From an uncultured Clostridia bacterium (GTDB lineage Bacteria > Aerophobota > Aerophobia > Aerophobales > B3-G15): a DNA stretch of 64,000 nt. Positions 33,039-43,951 of the stretch are shown here, piece by piece. Where the stretch lies: assembly GCA_964482715.1 (NCBI GenBank), contig CAYZYX010000003.1, positions 1 to 64,000 on the forward strand. The letters are read 5' to 3'. Position 1 is the stretch's first letter; every line of letters starts with the position of its first letter. The notes below the pieces were generated by a model that was not told the DNA's origin, searched no databases, and saw only the letters and a list, made by a program, of their open reading frames with translations. A program made the position numbers and the translations under genes.

Positions 33039-33584
33039 ATGCTGTGCCAGATGTGCAAAAGCAGAGAGGCTACGGTTCATGTTAAGGAGATAATTAACGG
33101 TGAAAAAAGGGAACTTCATTTATGTTCTGTCTGTGCAGAAAAAAAAGGATTAACCGAATTTCTCCTTTCTCCTGATTCTATCTTTGCCAGTTTAATGGGA
33201 GAACTGAGTCAATTTCTGGAATCGCCATCTCCTGTGACCGAAGAAGAAGAAAAATGCCCCAGTTGCGGGTTATCTTTTGATAGGATAGTGAAAAAAGGAA
33301 AAATGGGGTGTTCCTGCTGCTATGAGACATTCAGACGTCATATTGTCCCTTTATTGGAAAAAATTCATGGAAGAGCCAGCCATAGAGGTAAAATCCCCGA
33401 AAGAGCAGCTGTTGAGAATAAAAAGAGACTGTTGCTTTACAGGTTACGTCACCAGTTGGAAGAAGCGGTTAAGAAAGAAGAATATGAAAAAGCAGCTCAA
33501 ATCCGGGATCAAATAAGAAGAATTCAAAGTGAAGGTAAGCATCTTGGGAGAGAAAATCAAATATCTTCTCAAGACACCAAATGA
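33039..33584 (+). CDS. mcsA: McsA, activator of protein-arginine kinase
   Basis: Four CxxC motifs, HxGKIP, C-terminal UVR domain EEYEKAAQIRD. Confidence 0.93.
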   Translation: MLCQMCKSREATVHVKEIINGEKRELHLCSVCAEKKGLTEFLLSPDSIFASLMGELSQFLESPSPVTEEEEKCPSCGLSFDRIVKKGKMGCSCCYETFRRHIVPLLEKIHGRASHRGKIPERAAVENKKRLLLYRLRHQLEEAVKKEEYEKAAQIRDQIRRIQSEGKHLGRENQISSQDTK

Positions 33585-34608
33585 ATGGATAAAGGCTACA
33601 GGTCCTGAAAGCGAGATAGTTTTTAGTTCTCGTGTTAGATTGGCCAGAAACATGCGAGGATTTTCTTTTCCTCCATGGGGAAAGGATTCACAGCTAAAAG
33701 AAGTGTGCAACCAAGTCCTGGAGGTGATTTGTAAGAGTAACTATTTTAAAAATTGCCTGATTTTAAATATGGACGAACTTTCCTTATTGGAGAAAAAATT
33801 TTTACTGGAGAGACATTTAATCAGTAGAGAATTTATTAAAGGAGGTAGAAATCAGGTCTTAATAATTGTTCCGGGTGAAGTCGTGTCAATTATGGTTAAC
33901 GAAGAAGACCATTTAAGAATCCAGGTCATTCTTTCAGGGCTTCAATTGATGGAAGCCTGGCGAATTGCCGATGGAATTGATACCGAATTAGCCAAGAATT
34001 TAAATTATGCTTTTTCACCACAGGAAGGGTACCTCACATCTTGTCTGACCAATGTAGGAACAGGATTGAGAGCCTCCTGTATGTTGCACCTGCCAGCACT
34101 TACCTATATAGGCAAGATAGACGATGTTTTAAAAACTGTGTCCAAATGGGGTCTTGTTGCTCGTGGATTTTATGGAGAAGGAAGCAAAATTCAGGGTGAT
34201 TTTTTTCAGATTTCCAACCAGGTTACCTTAGGATTAAAGGAGGAGGAAATTATAAACCTGGTGGAAAAAATAGTTCATGAGGTAATAGAACAGGAAAAGA
34301 AGGCTCGAGAATATTTATTAAAACGTGATGGTTTAAGAATTGCCGATGAGGTGGGAAGGGCCTATGGGATCCTCTCTCATGCTTATTTGATTGATTCTGG
34401 AGAGGCAATGAGTTTGCTATCCAAGTTAAGGTTAGGACTGTGTATGGGGTTAATTTCCGAAAACATTCCAATGGCTGTTTTAAATTATCTTTTTATAAGT
34501 GTTGGACCTGCTCAAATTCAGGTCAAAGAGGGAAAGCCTCTAAGACCAATAATGAGAGACAAGATTAGAGCCGGGGTTATTCGTGAAAAACTGAGCCATG
34601 AGAGATGA
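33529..34608 (+). CDS. mcsB: Protein-arginine kinase McsB
   Basis: SSRVRLARN, LLERHLIS, MVNEEDHLRIQ, GYLTSC.TNVGTGLRAS, QISNQVTLG; exact start uncertain. Confidence 0.95.
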   Translation: MKVSILGEKIKYLLKTPNEWIKATGPESEIVFSSRVRLARNMRGFSFPPWGKDSQLKEVCNQVLEVICKSNYFKNCLILNMDELSLLEKKFLLERHLISREFIKGGRNQVLIIVPGEVVSIMVNEEDHLRIQVILSGLQLMEAWRIADGIDTELAKNLNYAFSPQEGYLTSCLTNVGTGLRASCMLHLPALTYIGKIDDVLKTVSKWGLVARGFYGEGSKIQGDFFQISNQVTLGLKEEEIINLVEKIVHEVIEQEKKAREYLLKRDGLRIADEVGRAYGILSHAYLIDSGEAMSLLSKLRLGLCMGLISENIPMAVLNYLFISVGPAQIQVKEGKPLRPIMRDKIRAGVIREKLSHER

Positions 34609-37048: not shown

Positions 37049-38122
37049 ATGACTATGGCTAAAACAACTGTCGGATTAAAGATTGGTTCAACTTCCATAA
37101 AATTTGTTGAACTGGTGCATTTAAGGGATGGTTGTAAGTTGAGGAAAATAGGGATAGAGGAATTTCCTCTTTCAGAGAAAACCCAGGGTTACCTTAACAA
37201 TGTCAATTTTATTGCTGAAAAGTTGAAAGAGATTATTACCACCCATAAGATAAACTCACACAAGATAGTCAGTGGGGTGGAAGGTGAGTCAGTGGTAGTG
37301 AGAATTATAAGGGTTCCTCAAATGAAGGACAGCGAACTTCGAAGAGCAATAAGATGGGAGGCAGAAGAGCAAATCCCTTATCCCATGGATGATGTCTCAC
37401 TTGGATATCACATTTTAAAGAAGAATTTACTGGGGGCTCGAGGTAGAGAAGTAGCTGTACTTATCGTGGGAGTAAAAAAACAAAGCATTGATGAGCATCT
37501 TAATATTTTTCAGCAGATAGGTCTTACTCCCGCAATTGTTGATGTTAATTCTCTTGCTCTTTACAATATAGTTAAAAATAGTAGTATAGAAATATCCGAA
37601 GGAACCGCCCTTTTAAATATAGGTCATCGTGTTACCAATCTGGTTATTACGGCCGAAGATTTTCCTTTCATGGTTAGAGATATTAATTTTGGTGGGGAGA
37701 ACATCACTCAGAATTTGATGAGGAGATGGGGTATATCTTATGTAGAGGCCGAGAAACTCAAAAAAACTCGGGGAATGATCAGGTTTGATTTAGAGACTGC
37801 AAGTATAGAGGAGAAAGAGATGAGTCGAATTATCACGGATTCTCTGGAAGAACTCATTAAGGAAATAGTGCATTCTTTTGAGTATTTTGCTTCCAACAGA
37901 AAAGGTGCTCTTGTTCAAAAGGTGATTCTATCGGGAGGATGTTCTCTCATTAAAAATCTGGATAAATTTTTATCTCAGGAACTTGAAATCCCGGTTCAAA
38001 AAATAAATCCTTTCAGCAATGTAAGCTATTCAAGAGATAAGTTTGCCCAGTTTTTACCTTCTCTGGTCCCGCTTTTTGCTGTACCAGCAGGTTTAGCATT
38101 GAGGGAGATATCCTGGACATGA
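37049..38122 (+). CDS. pilM: Type IV pilus assembly protein PilM (actin-like)
   Basis: GLKIGSTSIK, WEAEEQIPY, LLNIGH, FGGENIT, LSGG, PV..INPF, GLALR. Confidence 0.92.
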   Translation: MTMAKTTVGLKIGSTSIKFVELVHLRDGCKLRKIGIEEFPLSEKTQGYLNNVNFIAEKLKEIITTHKINSHKIVSGVEGESVVVRIIRVPQMKDSELRRAIRWEAEEQIPYPMDDVSLGYHILKKNLLGARGREVAVLIVGVKKQSIDEHLNIFQQIGLTPAIVDVNSLALYNIVKNSSIEISEGTALLNIGHRVTNLVITAEDFPFMVRDINFGGENITQNLMRRWGISYVEAEKLKKTRGMIRFDLETASIEEKEMSRIITDSLEELIKEIVHSFEYFASNRKGALVQKVILSGGCSLIKNLDKFLSQELEIPVQKINPFSNVSYSRDKFAQFLPSLVPLFAVPAGLALREISWT

Positions 38123-38694
38123 TTGAGATTAATCTTTTACCACCAGAGATAATTCAACAGAGAAAAAAAAGAGATTTTATCATATTTGTGGGAATATGTG
38201 TAGCTGTGGCAATAAGTATTTGTTATCTTCTTTATCTTTCTTTAGCTCAAAGCATCTATCCTCTGGAGCAAAAATTAGAAGATATAAAAAGGCAGATTTC
38301 CCAATATCAACCCACCCTTAAAGAAATAGAAGAGACCAAAAAAGAAAATGCCGAGATAATGGCTCGATTTGATGCTTTCAGGCAGGTAGTGGAAAGACAG
38401 TCGTTTTGGCCTCGTCTATTATACGAGATTTATCGGGCACTTCCTGATACTTTATGGTTAAACGAGATTAAAACCAGTCAGGATGGTAAATTCGTAGAGA
38501 TCGAGGGAAATAGTTTAAACGAAACCATAGGTGTTGCACATTTTATCAATAACTTAAAAAAATCCGGGATTTTCTCAGATATTGAGTTTATTAAGTTCTC
38601 TCAGCATAAAATAGCGGATAAGCAGGCTATGCTTTTTAGATTAAGGTGTTTTCTGGGAAAAGAAAGACCAGTACCCGAAGGTTCTGCAAAATGA
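38119..38694 (+). CDS. pilN: Type IV pilus assembly protein PilN
   Basis: N-terminal INLLP motif, TM helix, coiled coil, LP..LWL. Confidence 0.9.
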   Translation: MIEINLLPPEIIQQRKKRDFIIFVGICVAVAISICYLLYLSLAQSIYPLEQKLEDIKRQISQYQPTLKEIEETKKENAEIMARFDAFRQVVERQSFWPRLLYEIYRALPDTLWLNEIKTSQDGKFVEIEGNSLNETIGVAHFINNLKKSGIFSDIEFIKFSQHKIADKQAMLFRLRCFLGKERPVPEGSAK

Positions 38695-39326
38695 GTATTT
38701 TCGATATGAAAGGTCGAGTAATGATAGGGGTGGCAATTTTCCTGGGGTTGTTACTGGTTTTTTATGTCATGGTTTATAAGCCCCAGATAATTCATAAAAA
38801 TAATCTTGAGATTAAAATCTCTCAGCAAAATAGAAGACTTCTTCAACTTAAAGAAAAGTACCGGGAACTTGAGCAGTTAAAAGAGGAAAATAAAAAAATT
38901 AAAAATAACCTTGCCGCTCTGGAAAGCAAGTTGAAGGAAGGAAGAGTGTCTTTCCTTTACGAGCTGGGATTTAGGGGAAAAATCTACGGAGTTGAATACC
39001 TGGAGATAACACCTTTATCTACAATAGAGGAGAAGTATTATCTTCGAACTCCGGTAAAAATGCATCTTTTTAGTAAATATCATAATTTTGGTATGTTGAT
39101 TTCCGACATGGCAAAAAAAGGGGGACTGGGGGCTTTTACCGTGGATAATGTACTTTTAAAATCCACCTCCAGAGAAGGGTACACAATTGAAGCCAGTCTT
39201 ATCCTTTCTCTTTACAGATATAAGGGGCTAACTTTCTATTCCAGTGAAACCGTAGCTACTTCTTTGAGTAATAAGATTTCCGGTTTAAAATCTTCTAAGA
39301 CTGGAGTTTTACGGAGAAAAAGATGA
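38691..39326 (+). CDS. pilO: Type IV pilus assembly protein PilO
   Basis: ATGA overlap with pilN; TM helix plus coiled coil; YY...PV and 'YHNFG' segments. Confidence 0.8.
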   Translation: MSIFDMKGRVMIGVAIFLGLLLVFYVMVYKPQIIHKNNLEIKISQQNRRLLQLKEKYRELEQLKEENKKIKNNLAALESKLKEGRVSFLYELGFRGKIYGVEYLEITPLSTIEEKYYLRTPVKMHLFSKYHNFGMLISDMAKKGGLGAFTVDNVLLKSTSREGYTIEASLILSLYRYKGLTFYSSETVATSLSNKISGLKSSKTGVLRRKR

Positions 39327-39769
39327 AGTTTTTAACGGTTTGTCTTTTGAGTTTATTCTTTTTTTCTTGCCTGGTTGAGACCAAAGTGTTTGCCCAGCCT
39401 GAAGAAGATTTTTCTCTGCCGGAAATATTTGAATACCCTGTAACTAAAGGTAGAGATCCCTTTGCTCCTCTTATAATTGAAAAAAAGAGGGTTGAAGAAA
39501 AAAAAGTAGTTATGCCAAAAGCTGAAGTCAAAGCTCAACCCGGGCCAGAAAAACTCCCTGTTATAACCCATTCTGAGTATAAGCTGATAGGTATTGTCTG
39601 GTATGGAGAAGAAGCTGCAGCTTTGATCAGAAAAAATGAAAAGACCTGGGTAGTAAAAGAAGGAATGGTTTTTAATGGTCTTAGTGTTGCAAGAATTGAG
39701 GGTGAAAAAGGAGAAGTTATTCTTCTGGGAAAAGATAAGATAATCAAATTAAATATGCTGGAGATTTAG
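39323..39769 (+). CDS. pilP: PilP-like protein
   Basis: Signal peptide, GRDPFAPL motif, LIGIVW..ALI..VKEG beta domain; position after pilO. Confidence 0.7.
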   Translation: MKFLTVCLLSLFFFSCLVETKVFAQPEEDFSLPEIFEYPVTKGRDPFAPLIIEKKRVEEKKVVMPKAEVKAQPGPEKLPVITHSEYKLIGIVWYGEEAAALIRKNEKTWVVKEGMVFNGLSVARIEGEKGEVILLGKDKIIKLNMLEI

Positions 39770-39770
39770 C

Positions 39771-40749
39771 ATGAAGATGAAGACCAATATTTTTTTGACT
39801 GGGGGGGCTTTTTTCTTTCTGGCATTTTTTTGCTTTTGCTTGTTAGCCGGAGCAGAAGAAATTCCACTGGAAAAGAAGGTGATATCTCTTGATTTTAAAG
39901 GTATTGATGTTCGAGATGCCCTGCGGCTGATTTCGGTCCAAAGTGGAGTAAACATAGTAGTTGAACCAGAAGTAGAGGGTAAAATCACTGCAAGATTTGA
40001 AGAGCCTGTCCCTTTACTTGAGGCACTTTCCATAATCCTTTCCTCTGTTGACTGCATCTACCAGAAAGAGGACAANNNNNNNNNNNNNNNNNNNNNNNNN
40101 NNNNNNNNNNNNNNNNNNNNNNNNNNNNNNNNNNNNNNNNNNNNNNNNNNNNNNNNNNNNNNNNNNNNNNNNNNNAGAGGATGCTCCCTTTTACCTTGAC
40201 AGGGTAAAAGAGCTTGTAAAAGAGGAAGATGTGCTGGATAAGCAAATTATGACCAAAAGTTATAACTTACTTTATCTATCACCACTTGAGGCTAAAACTC
40301 TTTTAGAGACAAAGCTTTCCAGATATGGAAGGGTGATTATCCCTGTAATCCCTGAAGAAAAAAGTGAAAACAAAGAGGAAATTGTTGTTATTCCTCAGGA
40401 AAATCCTGAGGAAAAGCAAGAAGTTGAAATAAAGTCATCTCAATCCAGTTCTTCTTTAGGCCTTGGACCAGTCATATATGTTACCGAGTTAAAGAAGAAT
40501 TTTCCCCAGATTGACAAGATAATTGAGGATTTTAATTCTGAACAGTGGGCTTCAAAAATGGTTACCCGTACTTTTTACTTAAAGGAGGGTTCCCTGGAAA
40601 GAATAGCTCTTGCCATTGCCAATGTACTAGGTGTACCTCCCGAAAAAATTGAAGGAATCAATTTAAAAAAGGTAAGCTGGATGGAGATGCAACTTACCTC
40701 TCCTTCTATTGATCTGGGAAATATTGGAGCAGTGGGTAAAAAACCCTGA
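39771..40749 (+). CDS. Secretin N-terminal part (signal peptide, N0/STN and NolW-like N-domains), interrupted by the assembly gap; no secretin barrel visible
   Basis: Before the gap ISLDFKGIDVRDALRLISVQSGVNIVV; after it EDAPFYLDRV..MTKSYNLLYLSP..LSRYG and VTRTFYLK; TGA 40747-40749; continuity across the gap is assumed. Confidence 0.7.
40076..40175. other. Assembly gap (100 N, true length unknown)
   Basis: Run of exactly 100 N. Confidence 0.99.
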
Positions 40750-40762
40750 TTGGGAGTGATCC

Positions 40763-43063
40763 ATGAAAAAACCAAAAATTAAAACACTTATTAACTTAAC
40801 AGGTTTTGCCATTTTATTTTTCTGGAGCGTTATGGTTTTTGCCGAGCCTGTTGTCTGGGTTGATCCAGCTACAGGGAGGATTACCATTAAGGCACCCCGG
40901 GAGAAGATCAAAGAAGTTGAAGAGATAATTTCCCGTTTTCCAGCTCAGCCGCGCCAAATCGAAATTGAGGCCAGGATAATAGAAGTAAGCGAAGAGGTGA
41001 CTAAAAAATTTGGAACTTCGCTGGAGAGACTCACAGGTCTTGAAGTTCCTGTGGGAACGACAGGAGAAGGTTCAAAGATTGCTTTTGGCCCCAAAACCTT
41101 AACCGAACTGGAGGAGGGAAAAGGAGCTCTTGAGTTTAATTTTTATCGTCTCACTGCGGAAGAAAGATTTGAAATGATTTTAAACATGCTTTTAACTGAG
41201 GGGAAAGCCAGAGTTTTATCCTCTCCCAGGGTTTCCACACTTTCAGGGGAAGTTGCCGGGATATACGTGACCACAGAGATCCCCTACCTTGCCAGTATTA
41301 CCTACAGAATAGTAGGAGAAAAGGAGATTCCGGAAGAGCATTATGAATATGCCACGGTGGGGATCGTTCTTCAGGTTCTTCCACGAATAGTAGGTGAAGA
41401 TCTGGTGGAAATGTCTGTTATTCCTCTGGTTGGTAATTACGAAATCAGTCCGGAATTTGGCGCTCAACACCCTATATTTAAGCGCCAGATTTCTCCCACC
41501 AATGTAACCGTGAAAGATGGAGAATCTCTGGTCATAGGAGGACTTATAACCAGAGATAAATCAAAAAGAGTAATAGGGCTTCCCGTTCTTTCTCATCTAC
41601 CTGTGCTGGGAGGACTTTTCCGAAGTCAGGTAGAAATCATAAAAGAAAAAAGTCTTCTCATAACAGTTAAACCGCATATACTAAAACCAAGAGAGATAAA
41701 AGGAAGAGTCAAAAGGATTTTTCATTTAAAGTATGGTCTGGCATCTGAAGTTGCGGGGCAGGTAAGAGAGCTTCTCTCTTCACAGGGTTCAATTGAAGTA
41801 AATCCCAAGGAAGCTCCTCCCAATTCCATTCTGGTACGAGACCTTGAAGATAGAATCAGGGTTATTCAATCTTTCCTGAATCAAACAGGGACTTTTCAGG
41901 CTCAGAGACGACAGAAAAAATACCCTCTTGTATATACAACACTTGAAGAGGCTATGGTTACAGTGGAGAAGCTTTTATCTAAACACGGTTCTGTTAGAAT
42001 GGAAGAAGGAAATGTGCTGATAGTGGAAGACGGGGCTTACCAGATTTCCCTGATTGATGAAGCAATACGCGCCCTGGAAAGGCACAATTCTTTTCCTCAG
42101 ATAAAGACTTTTAACCTCAAGTTTGTTGCTGACAAACAGGCTGTAAGAGAGATTCTTCCTCTTCTTTCCCCTCGAGGATCCTGTAAAATTACAAAAGAGC
42201 GAGTTTTACTGGTTGAGGACAACAACTGGGTTATCCAAAAAGTTAGTGAGAAACTTAAGGAACTGGATACGTTTGATAGCCAAAAAGAAACAAAAGTCTA
42301 TTCTTTAAAAAATGAAATTGTCTCGGAACTTTTAAAATCAGCCAGTTTTCAGCAAGTAGTAAAAGCAGAGCTTAGTCCTCAGTGCAAGATAATACCCAGA
42401 GAAGAAACTAATGAACTTTTGATTACAGAGGTAAACTGGAAACAGAAAAAGGTGAAAGAGATTGTTAAGAGTTTTGACACCTACAGAAAGGTAGAAGCTA
42501 CTTATGAGGTAAAATTCTGGTTTGCTTCTTCATTAAAATCCAAGTTAACTCCTCTTCTCACTCCACAAGGCGAGATGGTGGTTGACGAAGACAAAAATTC
42601 ACTTATAATAAAAGACTCACCTTACCGAATAAAGAAGATAGGCGATGAAATAAAAAAATTGGATCGGTTTGAGCTGGTTAAATCGGAAGAAAGGTTGACT
42701 GTTCAGTACTTACCTTTAGAAAAAGCAATACAAATAGCAAGAGAACAGATGTCTTCACAGGGAAAAATTTTAAAGATAGAAAAAAAGAGAAGAAGTTTTA
42801 CAATAGAGGAAGCCCCCTTTCCTTTACGTAAGATACGAGAAAAAATCGAGAAACTGGACACATTTGAGAAAAATAGAGTAGCTGAGTTTTACCTGTTAAA
42901 ACACGTTTCCCCTGAAGAAGCTGCACTGGTGGTAAGATATTTCCTCTCCCCACGGGGGAAAGTATATGCTGGAGAGGATCGTATCCTGGTAATTGATGCT
43001 CCTTACTATCAGAGACAAGTTGGTGAAGTAATAAGACTCATTGATCTTCCCAATTCAAAATAG
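40763..43063 (+). CDS. Atypical PilQ/GspD-family secretin: signal peptide, half N-domain, secretin core, then 7 NolW-like repeats
   Basis: QIEIEARIIEV, ARVLSSPRV, VGIVLQVLPRI, VKDGESLVIGGL, GLPVLSHLPVLGGLFR, LLITVKPHI; repeats of 'x(F/Y)xL...LSxxG...LxVxD'. Confidence 0.88.
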   Translation: MKKPKIKTLINLTGFAILFFWSVMVFAEPVVWVDPATGRITIKAPREKIKEVEEIISRFPAQPRQIEIEARIIEVSEEVTKKFGTSLERLTGLEVPVGTTGEGSKIAFGPKTLTELEEGKGALEFNFYRLTAEERFEMILNMLLTEGKARVLSSPRVSTLSGEVAGIYVTTEIPYLASITYRIVGEKEIPEEHYEYATVGIVLQVLPRIVGEDLVEMSVIPLVGNYEISPEFGAQHPIFKRQISPTNVTVKDGESLVIGGLITRDKSKRVIGLPVLSHLPVLGGLFRSQVEIIKEKSLLITVKPHILKPREIKGRVKRIFHLKYGLASEVAGQVRELLSSQGSIEVNPKEAPPNSILVRDLEDRIRVIQSFLNQTGTFQAQRRQKKYPLVYTTLEEAMVTVEKLLSKHGSVRMEEGNVLIVEDGAYQISLIDEAIRALERHNSFPQIKTFNLKFVADKQAVREILPLLSPRGSCKITKERVLLVEDNNWVIQKVSEKLKELDTFDSQKETKVYSLKNEIVSELLKSASFQQVVKAELSPQCKIIPREETNELLITEVNWKQKKVKEIVKSFDTYRKVEATYEVKFWFASSLKSKLTPLLTPQGEMVVDEDKNSLIIKDSPYRIKKIGDEIKKLDRFELVKSEERLTVQYLPLEKAIQIAREQMSSQGKILKIEKKRRSFTIEEAPFPLRKIREKIEKLDTFEKNRVAEFYLLKHVSPEEAALVVRYFLSPRGKVYAGEDRILVIDAPYYQRQVGEVIRLIDLPNSK

Positions 43064-43072
43064 AGGTTTATA

Positions 43073-43951
43073 ATGGAAATGAAAAAGTTGAAATTTGGTT
43101 TGCCCAAGGGAAGCCTGGAAAAAATGAGTCTTGAGTTATTTGAGCGAGCTGGGTACAAAATTACCCAAGAAGAAAGGTCTTACAATCTCTTTATTGATGA
43201 CGATGAAATTGAGCCCATGCTTATTCGCACTCAAGAAATTCCGCTTTATGTTGGAAAAGGCGTTCTTGATGCAGGTCTGGCTGGAAATGACTGGATTCTG
43301 GAGCGTAAGATCGAGGTGGTAAGGGTGAAGGAACTTCCCTATGCCAAACAGGGTTTGGGAAAAGTAAAGTGGGTACTGGCTGTTCCTCGGAATTCACCTA
43401 TCCAGAAAGTTGAGGATCTTGAAGGTGGAAGGCTGGCTACTGAACTTGTAGAAGTAACTAAAGATTATTTAAAAAAGAAGGGAATAAAAGCAGAAGTTGA
43501 ATTTTCCTGGGGAGCAACTGAAGTTAAGCCTCCTCACCTTGTAGATGCCATAGTTGAACTTACCGAGACGGGAAGATCTCTTCGGGCAAATAACCTTCGA
43601 ATAATAGATGTCGTTCTTGAATCAACCACCTGGCTTATAGCTAATCCCCTGGCCTGGCAGGATGAGTGGAAGAGAGAGAAGGTAAAAGCTCTGGCTATAC
43701 TTCTGGAGGGAGCAATTAATGGTCTCGGGAAAGTTGGTTTAAAATTAAATGTTTCCCAGGAAAATCTAAAGAAGGTCCTGAGGCTTTTACCCGCTCTTCG
43801 TCAGCCAACTATCTCTCAGTTAAGTGAAACGGGATGGTGGGCAGTAGAGACCATAGTAGATGAAAAACAGGCAAGGGAGCTCATTCCTAAGTTAAAAAAA
43901 GCCGGTGGGCAGGGTATAGTTGAATATTCACTACATAAAGTTGTCTATTGA
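43073..43951 (+). CDS. hisG: ATP phosphoribosyltransferase (long form)
   Basis: [36 protein letters not shown]-terminal regulatory domain. Confidence 0.95.

Follow-up and report, generated by a model that had tools for sequence, protein, structure and literature searches.

Must the ring-building N domains of a secretin lie ahead of its barrel? This question is raised by a gene in a 64,000-nucleotide (nt) stretch of DNA from an uncultured deep-sea sediment bacterium (positions 1 to 64,000 of contig CAYZYX010000003.1, assembly GCA_964482715.1; hereafter the window), where an open reading frame (ORF) of 766 amino acids (aa) on the forward strand, 40763..43063, encodes a secretin. In every solved secretin matched in this study, and likewise in the surveyed secretins of type IVa pili, the ring domains precede the barrel, an order on which current models of how secretins assemble, gate and couple to the inner-membrane platform are founded. 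An initial annotation, made from the letters of the window alone, had noted seven N-domain repeats placed C-terminal to the barrel and had proposed that they build a second stack of rings, which was taken to imply an unusual envelope. We find that the build of this secretin is bipartite and partly inverted: half of an N3 domain is followed by the barrel and then by seven N-type domains, while the N0 domain resides on a separate exported protein. The split layout, with N0 and the main N-domain array in an upstream gene, was absent from the initial annotation. Judged by sequence and gene context, the ORF product appears to serve the type IVa pilus (T4aP) machine of a Candidatus Aerophobetes bacterium as its sole outer-membrane secretin.

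Seven N-type domains behind the barrel

The Pfam Secretin domain (PF00263) is matched at residues 144-308 with an E-value of 2e-34 and 119.1 bits against a cut-off of 27.5, which places the protein in the secretin superfamily, and the modelled barrel matches those of GspD, InvG, PilQ and pIV with E-values down to 1.9e-11 in Foldseek searches and Z-scores of 10-11.7 in VIA-align superpositions. The NCBIfam models of PilQ (TIGR02515; 180.4 bits, cut-off 284.35, covering model positions 137-428 only) and of GspD (TIGR02517; 234.6 bits, cut-off 351.35) both score under their cut-offs; the neighbouring genes are of the pil and not of the gsp type. The secretin is the last gene of a pilM-N-O-P-Q cluster, with pilMNOP directly upstream on the same strand, and its surroundings are not those of a type III secretion cluster, as the neighbours are pilMNOP and housekeeping genes.

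Whereas a canonical secretin ends with its barrel or with a short S domain, this protein continues for about 450 residues that hold seven N-type domains (R1-R7). The motif LLITVKPHILK lies at residue 298, and after it seven units of 59-68 aa start at residues 318, 385, 448, 511, 579, 643 and 708 (nt 41714-43060); all the starts named in the initial annotation could be located in the translation, and the LSxxG, LxVxD and IxxLD motifs that it listed are visible in the repeat alignment. When the whole protein is searched, Secretin_N (PF03958) is matched with an E-value of 3.3e-28 and 98.1 bits (cut-off 28.2) in five stretches, all of them C-terminal to the Secretin match, and this bears out the proposed position of the repeats behind the barrel. 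Scanned singly, five of the seven match Secretin_N (E 6.2e-7 to 0.042), R5 alone exceeding the gathering score, and R3 and R6 give no Secretin_N match in Pfam. R1 is the best conserved repeat: it has a near-invariant NPKEAPPNS loop along with other invariant or near-invariant columns, and scores 85 bits to the R1 of a relative (G028).

An AlphaFold2 monomer model, built on a 61-row family alignment and with a mean predicted local distance difference test score (pLDDT) of 79.8, renders the C-terminal region as seven β-α-β-β-α units at pLDDT ~85-94. In VIA-align superpositions R5 (residues 575-635) fits the N2 domain of XcpQ (4e9j_B) with a Z-score of 12.1 and a root-mean-square deviation (rmsd) of 0.9 Å over 61 residues at 30% identity, and a further match is to the extramembranous domain of HofQ, a secretin of DNA uptake (2y3m; Z 8.9, 36% identity). 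R2 (residues ~379-445) fits the N domains of EscC, InvG and Neisseria PilQ with Z-scores of 9.0-9.6 (9.6 for both EscC 3gr5 and PilQ 4av2). Pairs and triplets of repeats could be superposed too, namely R2-R3 on N1-N2 of GspD (3ezj, residues 100-235; Z 9.9) and R3-R5 on residues 99-316 of Vibrio cholerae GspD with Z 10.9, yet in the latter case at an rmsd of 11.7 Å. Foldseek additionally matched the model to barrel-less crystal structures of the N-terminal regions of XcpQ and GspD. The listed fold matches, with Z-scores of 9-12, cover R2, R3 and R5 (the range 444-636 includes R4) and barely probe the other repeats. By profile match and modelled fold, the seven repeats are true secretin domains of the N1-N3 type, that is, of the ring-building fold, in agreement with what had been proposed from the letters; the refuting condition named there, a lack of this fold, does not hold.

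The passage from barrel to array is short. AlphaFold2 places the last barrel strand at residues 288-306 and the next strand, which belongs to R1, at residues 316-321, with a linker of about nine residues between them. The alignment of the Pseudomonas aeruginosa PilQ chain 6ve4_A reaches residue 304 of its 304 residues at model residue 313 (VIA-align), and on this superposition canonical PilQ chains appear to stop where the C-terminal array starts.

Ahead of the barrel the protein does not carry the canonical N0 and N-type domains of a single-polypeptide secretin. Residues 29-64 match only positions 37-69 of the Secretin_N profile (E 0.0053, Pfam), and in the AlphaFold2 model they form two strands (30-33 and 40-43) and a helix (46-56) at low pLDDT. 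The alignment of TIGR02515 to the secretin begins at model position 137 (NCBIfam).

The junction between barrel and repeats is genuine

An order of this kind could stem from a chimeric assembly at the junction near 41700 or from a fused frame of two genes, and the metagenome-type assembly and a scaffold gap just 1.5 kb upstream give some ground for such a suspicion. Against it, contigs from all four of four independent public runs bridge the junction without joints (over 40176-43100), and one contig of 11,075 nt spans 40201-43100 with 4 differences. The same continuous frame is kept in each of the 69 diverged homologue clusters (69/69; 44-71% identity), and at 17 distinct genome loci the barrel and the repeats share a single ORF that ends at a stop codon. 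A misassembly or two-gene fusion at ~41700 is refuted by these independent contigs, homologue clusters and stop-verified loci, and an artefact of either type is vanishingly improbable.

The N0 domain lies on a separate protein

An N0 domain was detected solely in the ORF upstream of the secretin and not in the secretin itself (Pfam, NCBIfam). The N0 part of this upstream gene (39771..40075) aligns to positions 3-64 of TIGR02515 with an E-value of 1.9e-11. The gene, here called the N0/N-array gene, stops at 40749, and the secretin starts 13 nt on, at 40763, in another frame and with a signal peptide of its own. The secretin is therefore bipartite: its N-terminal part, with N0 and the main array of N domains, and its barrel part are encoded in separate ORFs, and the relatives are arranged alike.

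In the window the N0/N-array gene is interrupted by a scaffold gap. In the closest relative (G018) a run of N interrupts this gene at the corresponding place, the contig depth directly past the gap is ~4-12x that of the adjoining sequence, and there is an alternative contig continuation at 40230; these three observations fit a collapse of tandem modules at the gap. In the relatives the upstream protein consists of a signal peptide, 1 to at least 3 tandem modules of N0 plus five N-type domains, an N domain with a low-complexity insert, and a conserved tail. Its complete form in G028 has 605 aa, other forms reach at least 1,100 aa, and in several genomes the modules are near-identical copies of each other. 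The fragment downstream of the gap in the window (40177..40749) is modelled by AlphaFold2 as β-α-β-[insert]-β-α at pLDDT 72-89, followed by the tail at pLDDT 34-63, and the tail is conserved across 12 distinct loci with 16 invariant columns.

Such upstream genes, seen at L025 (G008), L026 (G001), L027 (G029) and L029 (G028), differ in their number of modules, and where there is more than one, several N0 domains share a polypeptide. Internal N0 repeats are not known to us from any other secretin-related protein.

Spread of the family and lability of both arrays

A protein database search returned 69 clusters at E <1e-130, and the next matches come only at E 1e-26. The named clusters belong to Candidatus Aerophobetes, except for one labelled as Patescibacteria group, and all 69 carry 2-7 repeats after the barrel, as counted with a local hidden Markov model (HMM) derived from the seven repeats. 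A match is present in 28 of the 31 genomes of the window's phylum. This bipartite secretin is thus spread across the phylum, and its C-terminal set of ring-type domains is labile.

Genes with a verified stop carry 2, 3, 5, 6 or 7 repeats. In a tree of the barrel region from 19 loci, 7- and 3-repeat genes are sisters at support values of 100/99 and 100/100, and the well-supported branches force at least 5-6 changes of copy number. This count uses the 19 verified-stop loci, the 61-protein database tree having been left out of the counting because some of its 3-repeat entries are contig-end fragments (e.g. P0047). One 3-repeat protein and one 7-repeat protein share ~90% identity as far as the precise end of R3; the 5-repeat forms are without R4 and R5, and R4 is absent from the 3-repeat forms too. 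The copy number is no fixed structural length but switches between sister genomes, which weakens the interpretation given in the initial annotation. R1-R3 and R5-R7 are each matched best by the repeat at the equivalent position in a relative of 46% identity (for R4 this correspondence is weak), and such same-position matches indicate that the seven-domain array is old. From these comparisons, R1-R3 (R1-R2 in one genus) are the core of the array, and R4-R7 are accessory and dispensable.

The upstream protein varies as well, from ~7 to >19 domains, even within one genus (G028 versus G029). No pattern linking the repeat number to the upstream module number emerged from the few complete pairs, for instance 7/1 in G028, 7/at least 3 in G029 and 3/2 in G008.

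Two loci deserve a separate remark. The shortest verified form of the array, in the secretin of G011 (L023, 1492-4332; also in G009), has two repeats and a TAG stop, with hisG next in the same frame. Downstream of a 3-repeat secretin in G005 there is a 72-aa open frame (G005:C115:2482-2667) that matches R7 (residues 701-762) and looks like the remnant of a recent internal deletion.

Relation to known secretins

The secretin shares with PilQ of V. cholerae (6w6m) and P. aeruginosa (6ve2/6ve4) its place after pilMNOP, the barrel fold (Z 9.4-10.4) and the presence of N0 and N-type domains in the system; it differs from them in having N0 on another polypeptide, half an N3 ahead of the barrel and seven N-type domains after it. 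With PilQ of Thermus thermophilus it has in common the many ring-type domains in one pilus/DNA-uptake secretin, but in the Thermus protein these all lie N-terminal to the barrel within a single polypeptide. No AMIN domain was found in the present secretin system by Pfam. A survey of T4aP secretins from proteobacteria, 197 in number, gives AMIN(n)-N0-N3-secretin as the dominant order (PMC7545093).

Split secretins have been described in other settings. In the rhizobial type of type III secretion system the N- and C-terminal parts of the secretin are encoded by two ORFs, RhcC1 and RhcC2 (HrcIIC1/HrcIIC2) (PMC3574062). That is a type III system, whereas here the genes are adjacent (13 nt apart) and belong to a pilus machine, and the portion of PMC3574062 consulted makes no mention of N-type domains behind the barrel. 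The mitochondrial type II secretion system has separate GspDN1-3 proteins beside the pore protein GspD, and a single N domain is represented by two of them, one for its N-terminal and one for its C-terminal half (PMC8134430). N-type domains are thus encoded apart from the pore in that system too; it is, however, a system of a eukaryotic organelle, and the excerpts of PMC8134430 consulted mention no C-terminal array on the pore.

The full-length protein served as query in an exhaustive HMMER search, of which the best 150 representatives were taken further, and 289 proteins were then scanned, with the family's own members excluded. N-type matches after the barrel were obtained in 4 of the 289: P0145 and P0146, which are fragments of this family, and P0220 and P0239. 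The latter two (1099 and 940 aa, respectively) come from another, GC-richer lineage and have the full N0-N1-N2-N3 set ahead of the barrel, with two or three N0-like and one or two Secretin_N-like domains behind it. The tail of P0239 alone scores 25.1 bits with Secretin_N, below the cut-off, and 27.6 bits with N0 against a cut-off of 27, with no single stretch passing; a homologue search with this tail returned P0239 itself only. These two proteins resemble the Aerophobetes form in carrying N0-like and Secretin_N-like domains in a large post-barrel extension, and differ from it in the complete N0-N3 set in front and in having only 1-2 N-type domains behind. The Omnitrophota secretins P0183, P0213 and P0197 also have long post-barrel tails, but of the tetratricopeptide repeat (TPR) fold. 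A literature search that covered few of the subscription journals gave no description of N-type domains behind a secretin barrel. The claim that the architecture is undescribed therefore stands as far as this literature goes, while strict uniqueness does not, because P0220 and P0239 carry N0/N domains after the barrel. Nor did the literature search, of the same coverage, give a description of Aerophobetes pilus genes.

The HMMER search also brought up seven proteins of 3,300-4,000 aa (P0151, P0169, P0210, P0211, P0223, P0230 and P0250) with a secretin-like match at the extreme C-terminus and 6-10 matched stretches; they look like giant secretins.

How might the C-terminal array be arranged?

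In secretin structures the C-terminal strand of the barrel ends at the periplasmic rim. Given this end point and the short linker, R1 would be located at the barrel base and the array would project into the periplasm. In the reading that we favour, R1-R3, the universal and most conserved repeats, would oligomerise there in the manner of ordinary N domains to give ring tiers. These tiers would lie as a collar at the upper end of the periplasmic channel, or around it, and the collar would brace the joint, itself non-covalent, of barrel protein and N0/N-array protein. Possibly, the split N3 is rebuilt at this joint from the upstream tail and the N-terminal half-domain of the secretin. R4-R7 would then be an optional extension of the collar, which could be gained or lost without abolishing function. 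We favour such a bracing collar with optional extension as plausible, if still short of probable.

Several points weigh against it. The length of either array is variable (2-7 domains after the barrel, ~7 to >19 upstream), and this variation argues against a rigid, length-matched double wall as well as against a simple serial stack. The repeated loss of R4-R7 could mean that these domains have no structural role. The upstream tail gives no sequence match to the first half of N3 (NCBIfam, Pfam). A complex prediction for secretin residues 27-64 with the 75-aa upstream tail returned a score of 0.26 (mark 0.32), which counts neither for nor against a rebuilt N3. The monomer model has a predicted template modelling score (pTM) of 0.40, because of which the mutual placement of its domains is not predicted, and both ring formation by the C-terminal domains and their position are putative only.

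The N0 domain of a canonical machine is docked to the inner-membrane platform by way of PilP. The main rival reading is a serial channel in which the post-barrel domains replace the missing N1-N3 rings directly beneath the barrel, with R1 at the top and the last repeat at the bottom. The upstream N0/N-array protein would be attached underneath the last repeat and extend to PilP, and the chain would run from the barrel towards the inner membrane; to our knowledge, such a direction is the reverse of that in all known secretins. The presence of only half an N domain ahead of the barrel, the tethering of R1 to the barrel rim by ~9 residues and the ring-building fold of the repeats all speak for such a channel, as does the resemblance of R5-R7 to upstream repeats 3-5 in the same order, weak though it is at 43-47 bits. 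However, two arrays in series would amount to ~10 to >26 tiers in the relatives, which is too variable for one periplasmic width, and the loss of four tiers between sisters would by our estimate shorten the machine by ~10 nm or more, for which no compensating change was found. We regard this serial order as unlikely. A bolder formulation would make the Aerophobetes secretin a two-protein, topologically inverted machine, in which the post-barrel domains form the periplasmic wall from the outer to the inner membrane, the N0 array joins in trans via the split N3, and whole ring domains, added to or lost from the two proteins, tune the reach over short evolutionary times; this conjecture is doubtful.

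Alternatively, the repeats might not form rings at all but act as a flexible arm of beads on a string that binds peptidoglycan, incoming DNA, a pilotin-like assembly factor or neighbouring secretin complexes. The labile copy number and the dispensability of R4-R7 would be easily accommodated by such an arm, for which there is a precedent in the non-ring C-terminal arms of other secretins, e.g. TPR arrays. Its mildly basic character (net charge +11, isoelectric point 9.2) and the match of R5 to HofQ would suit it too, although a charge of this order is non-diagnostic for DNA binding. On the other side, Pfam scans of the array found no binding motif or domain besides Secretin_N, the same fold makes rings in every solved secretin that was matched, and R1-R3 are strongly conserved position by position. 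A purely arm-like role is distinctly unlikely in our estimation.

Whichever of these arrangements holds, the Aerophobetes would provide a natural experiment on which covalent connections a secretin needs and on how its periplasmic conduit is lengthened or shortened. The organisms are uncultured; the arrangement is nevertheless testable because heterologous expression and cryo-electron microscopy are feasible for a protein pair of this small size.

Gene neighbourhood and genomic context

The features of the operon and of the two secretin proteins are collected in Table 1. The pilP-like assignment is a weak one, and the operon position fits it. The operon is flanked by housekeeping genes, with hisG neighbouring the secretin in the window.

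Table 1. Coordinates in the window of the pil operon and of the domains of the bipartite secretin
Feature	Position (nt)	Strand	Evidence or remark
pilM	37049..38122	+	Pfam PilM_2 E 3.1e-55
pilN	38119..38694	+	Pfam PilN E 2.4e-12
pilO	38646..39326	+	Pfam PilO E 2.3e-11
pilP-like gene	39323..39769	+	PilP E 0.0028, 18 bits, below cut-off 25.6
Signal peptide and N0 domain, 5' part of N0/N-array gene	39771..40075	+	type_II_gspD_N0 E 6.9e-8
Scaffold gap (100 N) inside N0/N-array gene	40076..40175	.	frame changes across gap
N-type domain with disordered insert, and tail of ~60 aa (SP[ST]I[DN]LGxIG end)	40177..40749	+	AlphaFold2
Signal peptide of secretin	40763..40846	+	residues 1-28, MKKPKIKTLINLTGFAILFFWSVMVFA/EP, judged by eye; model helix 4-24
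Vestigial N3, β-β-α C-terminal half of an N-type domain only	40847..40954	+	residues 29-64
Secretin barrel domain	40955..41698	+	residues 65-312
End of linker from last barrel strand to R1	41699..41713	+	whole linker ~residues 307-315
R1, N-type domain	41714..41914	+	Secretin_N E 1.7e-5; NPKEAPPNS loop
R2, N-type domain	41915..42103	+	Secretin_N E 2e-3
R3, N-type domain, last of core three	42104..42292	+	β-α-β-β-α, pLDDT ~84-90
R4, N-type domain with longer first helix region, accessory	42293..42496	+	Secretin_N E 0.042; AlphaFold2
R5, N-type domain, accessory	42497..42688	+	Secretin_N E 6.2e-7, 30.0 bits
R6, N-type domain, accessory	42689..42883	+	β-α-β-β-α, pLDDT >90; positional counterpart in G028, 48 bits
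R7, N-type domain, plus stop codon	42884..43063	+	Secretin_N E 7.2e-5; AlphaFold2

The whole genome (94.7% complete) holds one Secretin match, together with one PilB-like and two PilT-like ATPase matches, and it also has matches to the Omp85 family (BamA-type) and to LpxC. By this gene content the organism is probably an ordinary lipopolysaccharide-bearing diderm with a T4aP machine. With its Omp85-family and LpxC matches, the gene content gives no indication of an unusual envelope, and this part of the initial annotation found no support. Among the public sequencing runs listed as containing the region there was no RNA run.

In many of the relatives there is another secretin match (E ~1e-30), whose alignment is confined to the half-N3 and barrel (~residues 29-310), for example at G007:C28:5217-7131, in G008:C18 and in G001:C130; in G007:C28 the N-type matches precede the barrel. 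The window's own genome is without such a second match.

A few genes upstream of the pil operon, at 33039-34608 of the window, a UVR-motif protein adjoins an ATP:guanido phosphotransferase, a pair that we take to be McsA/McsB-like.

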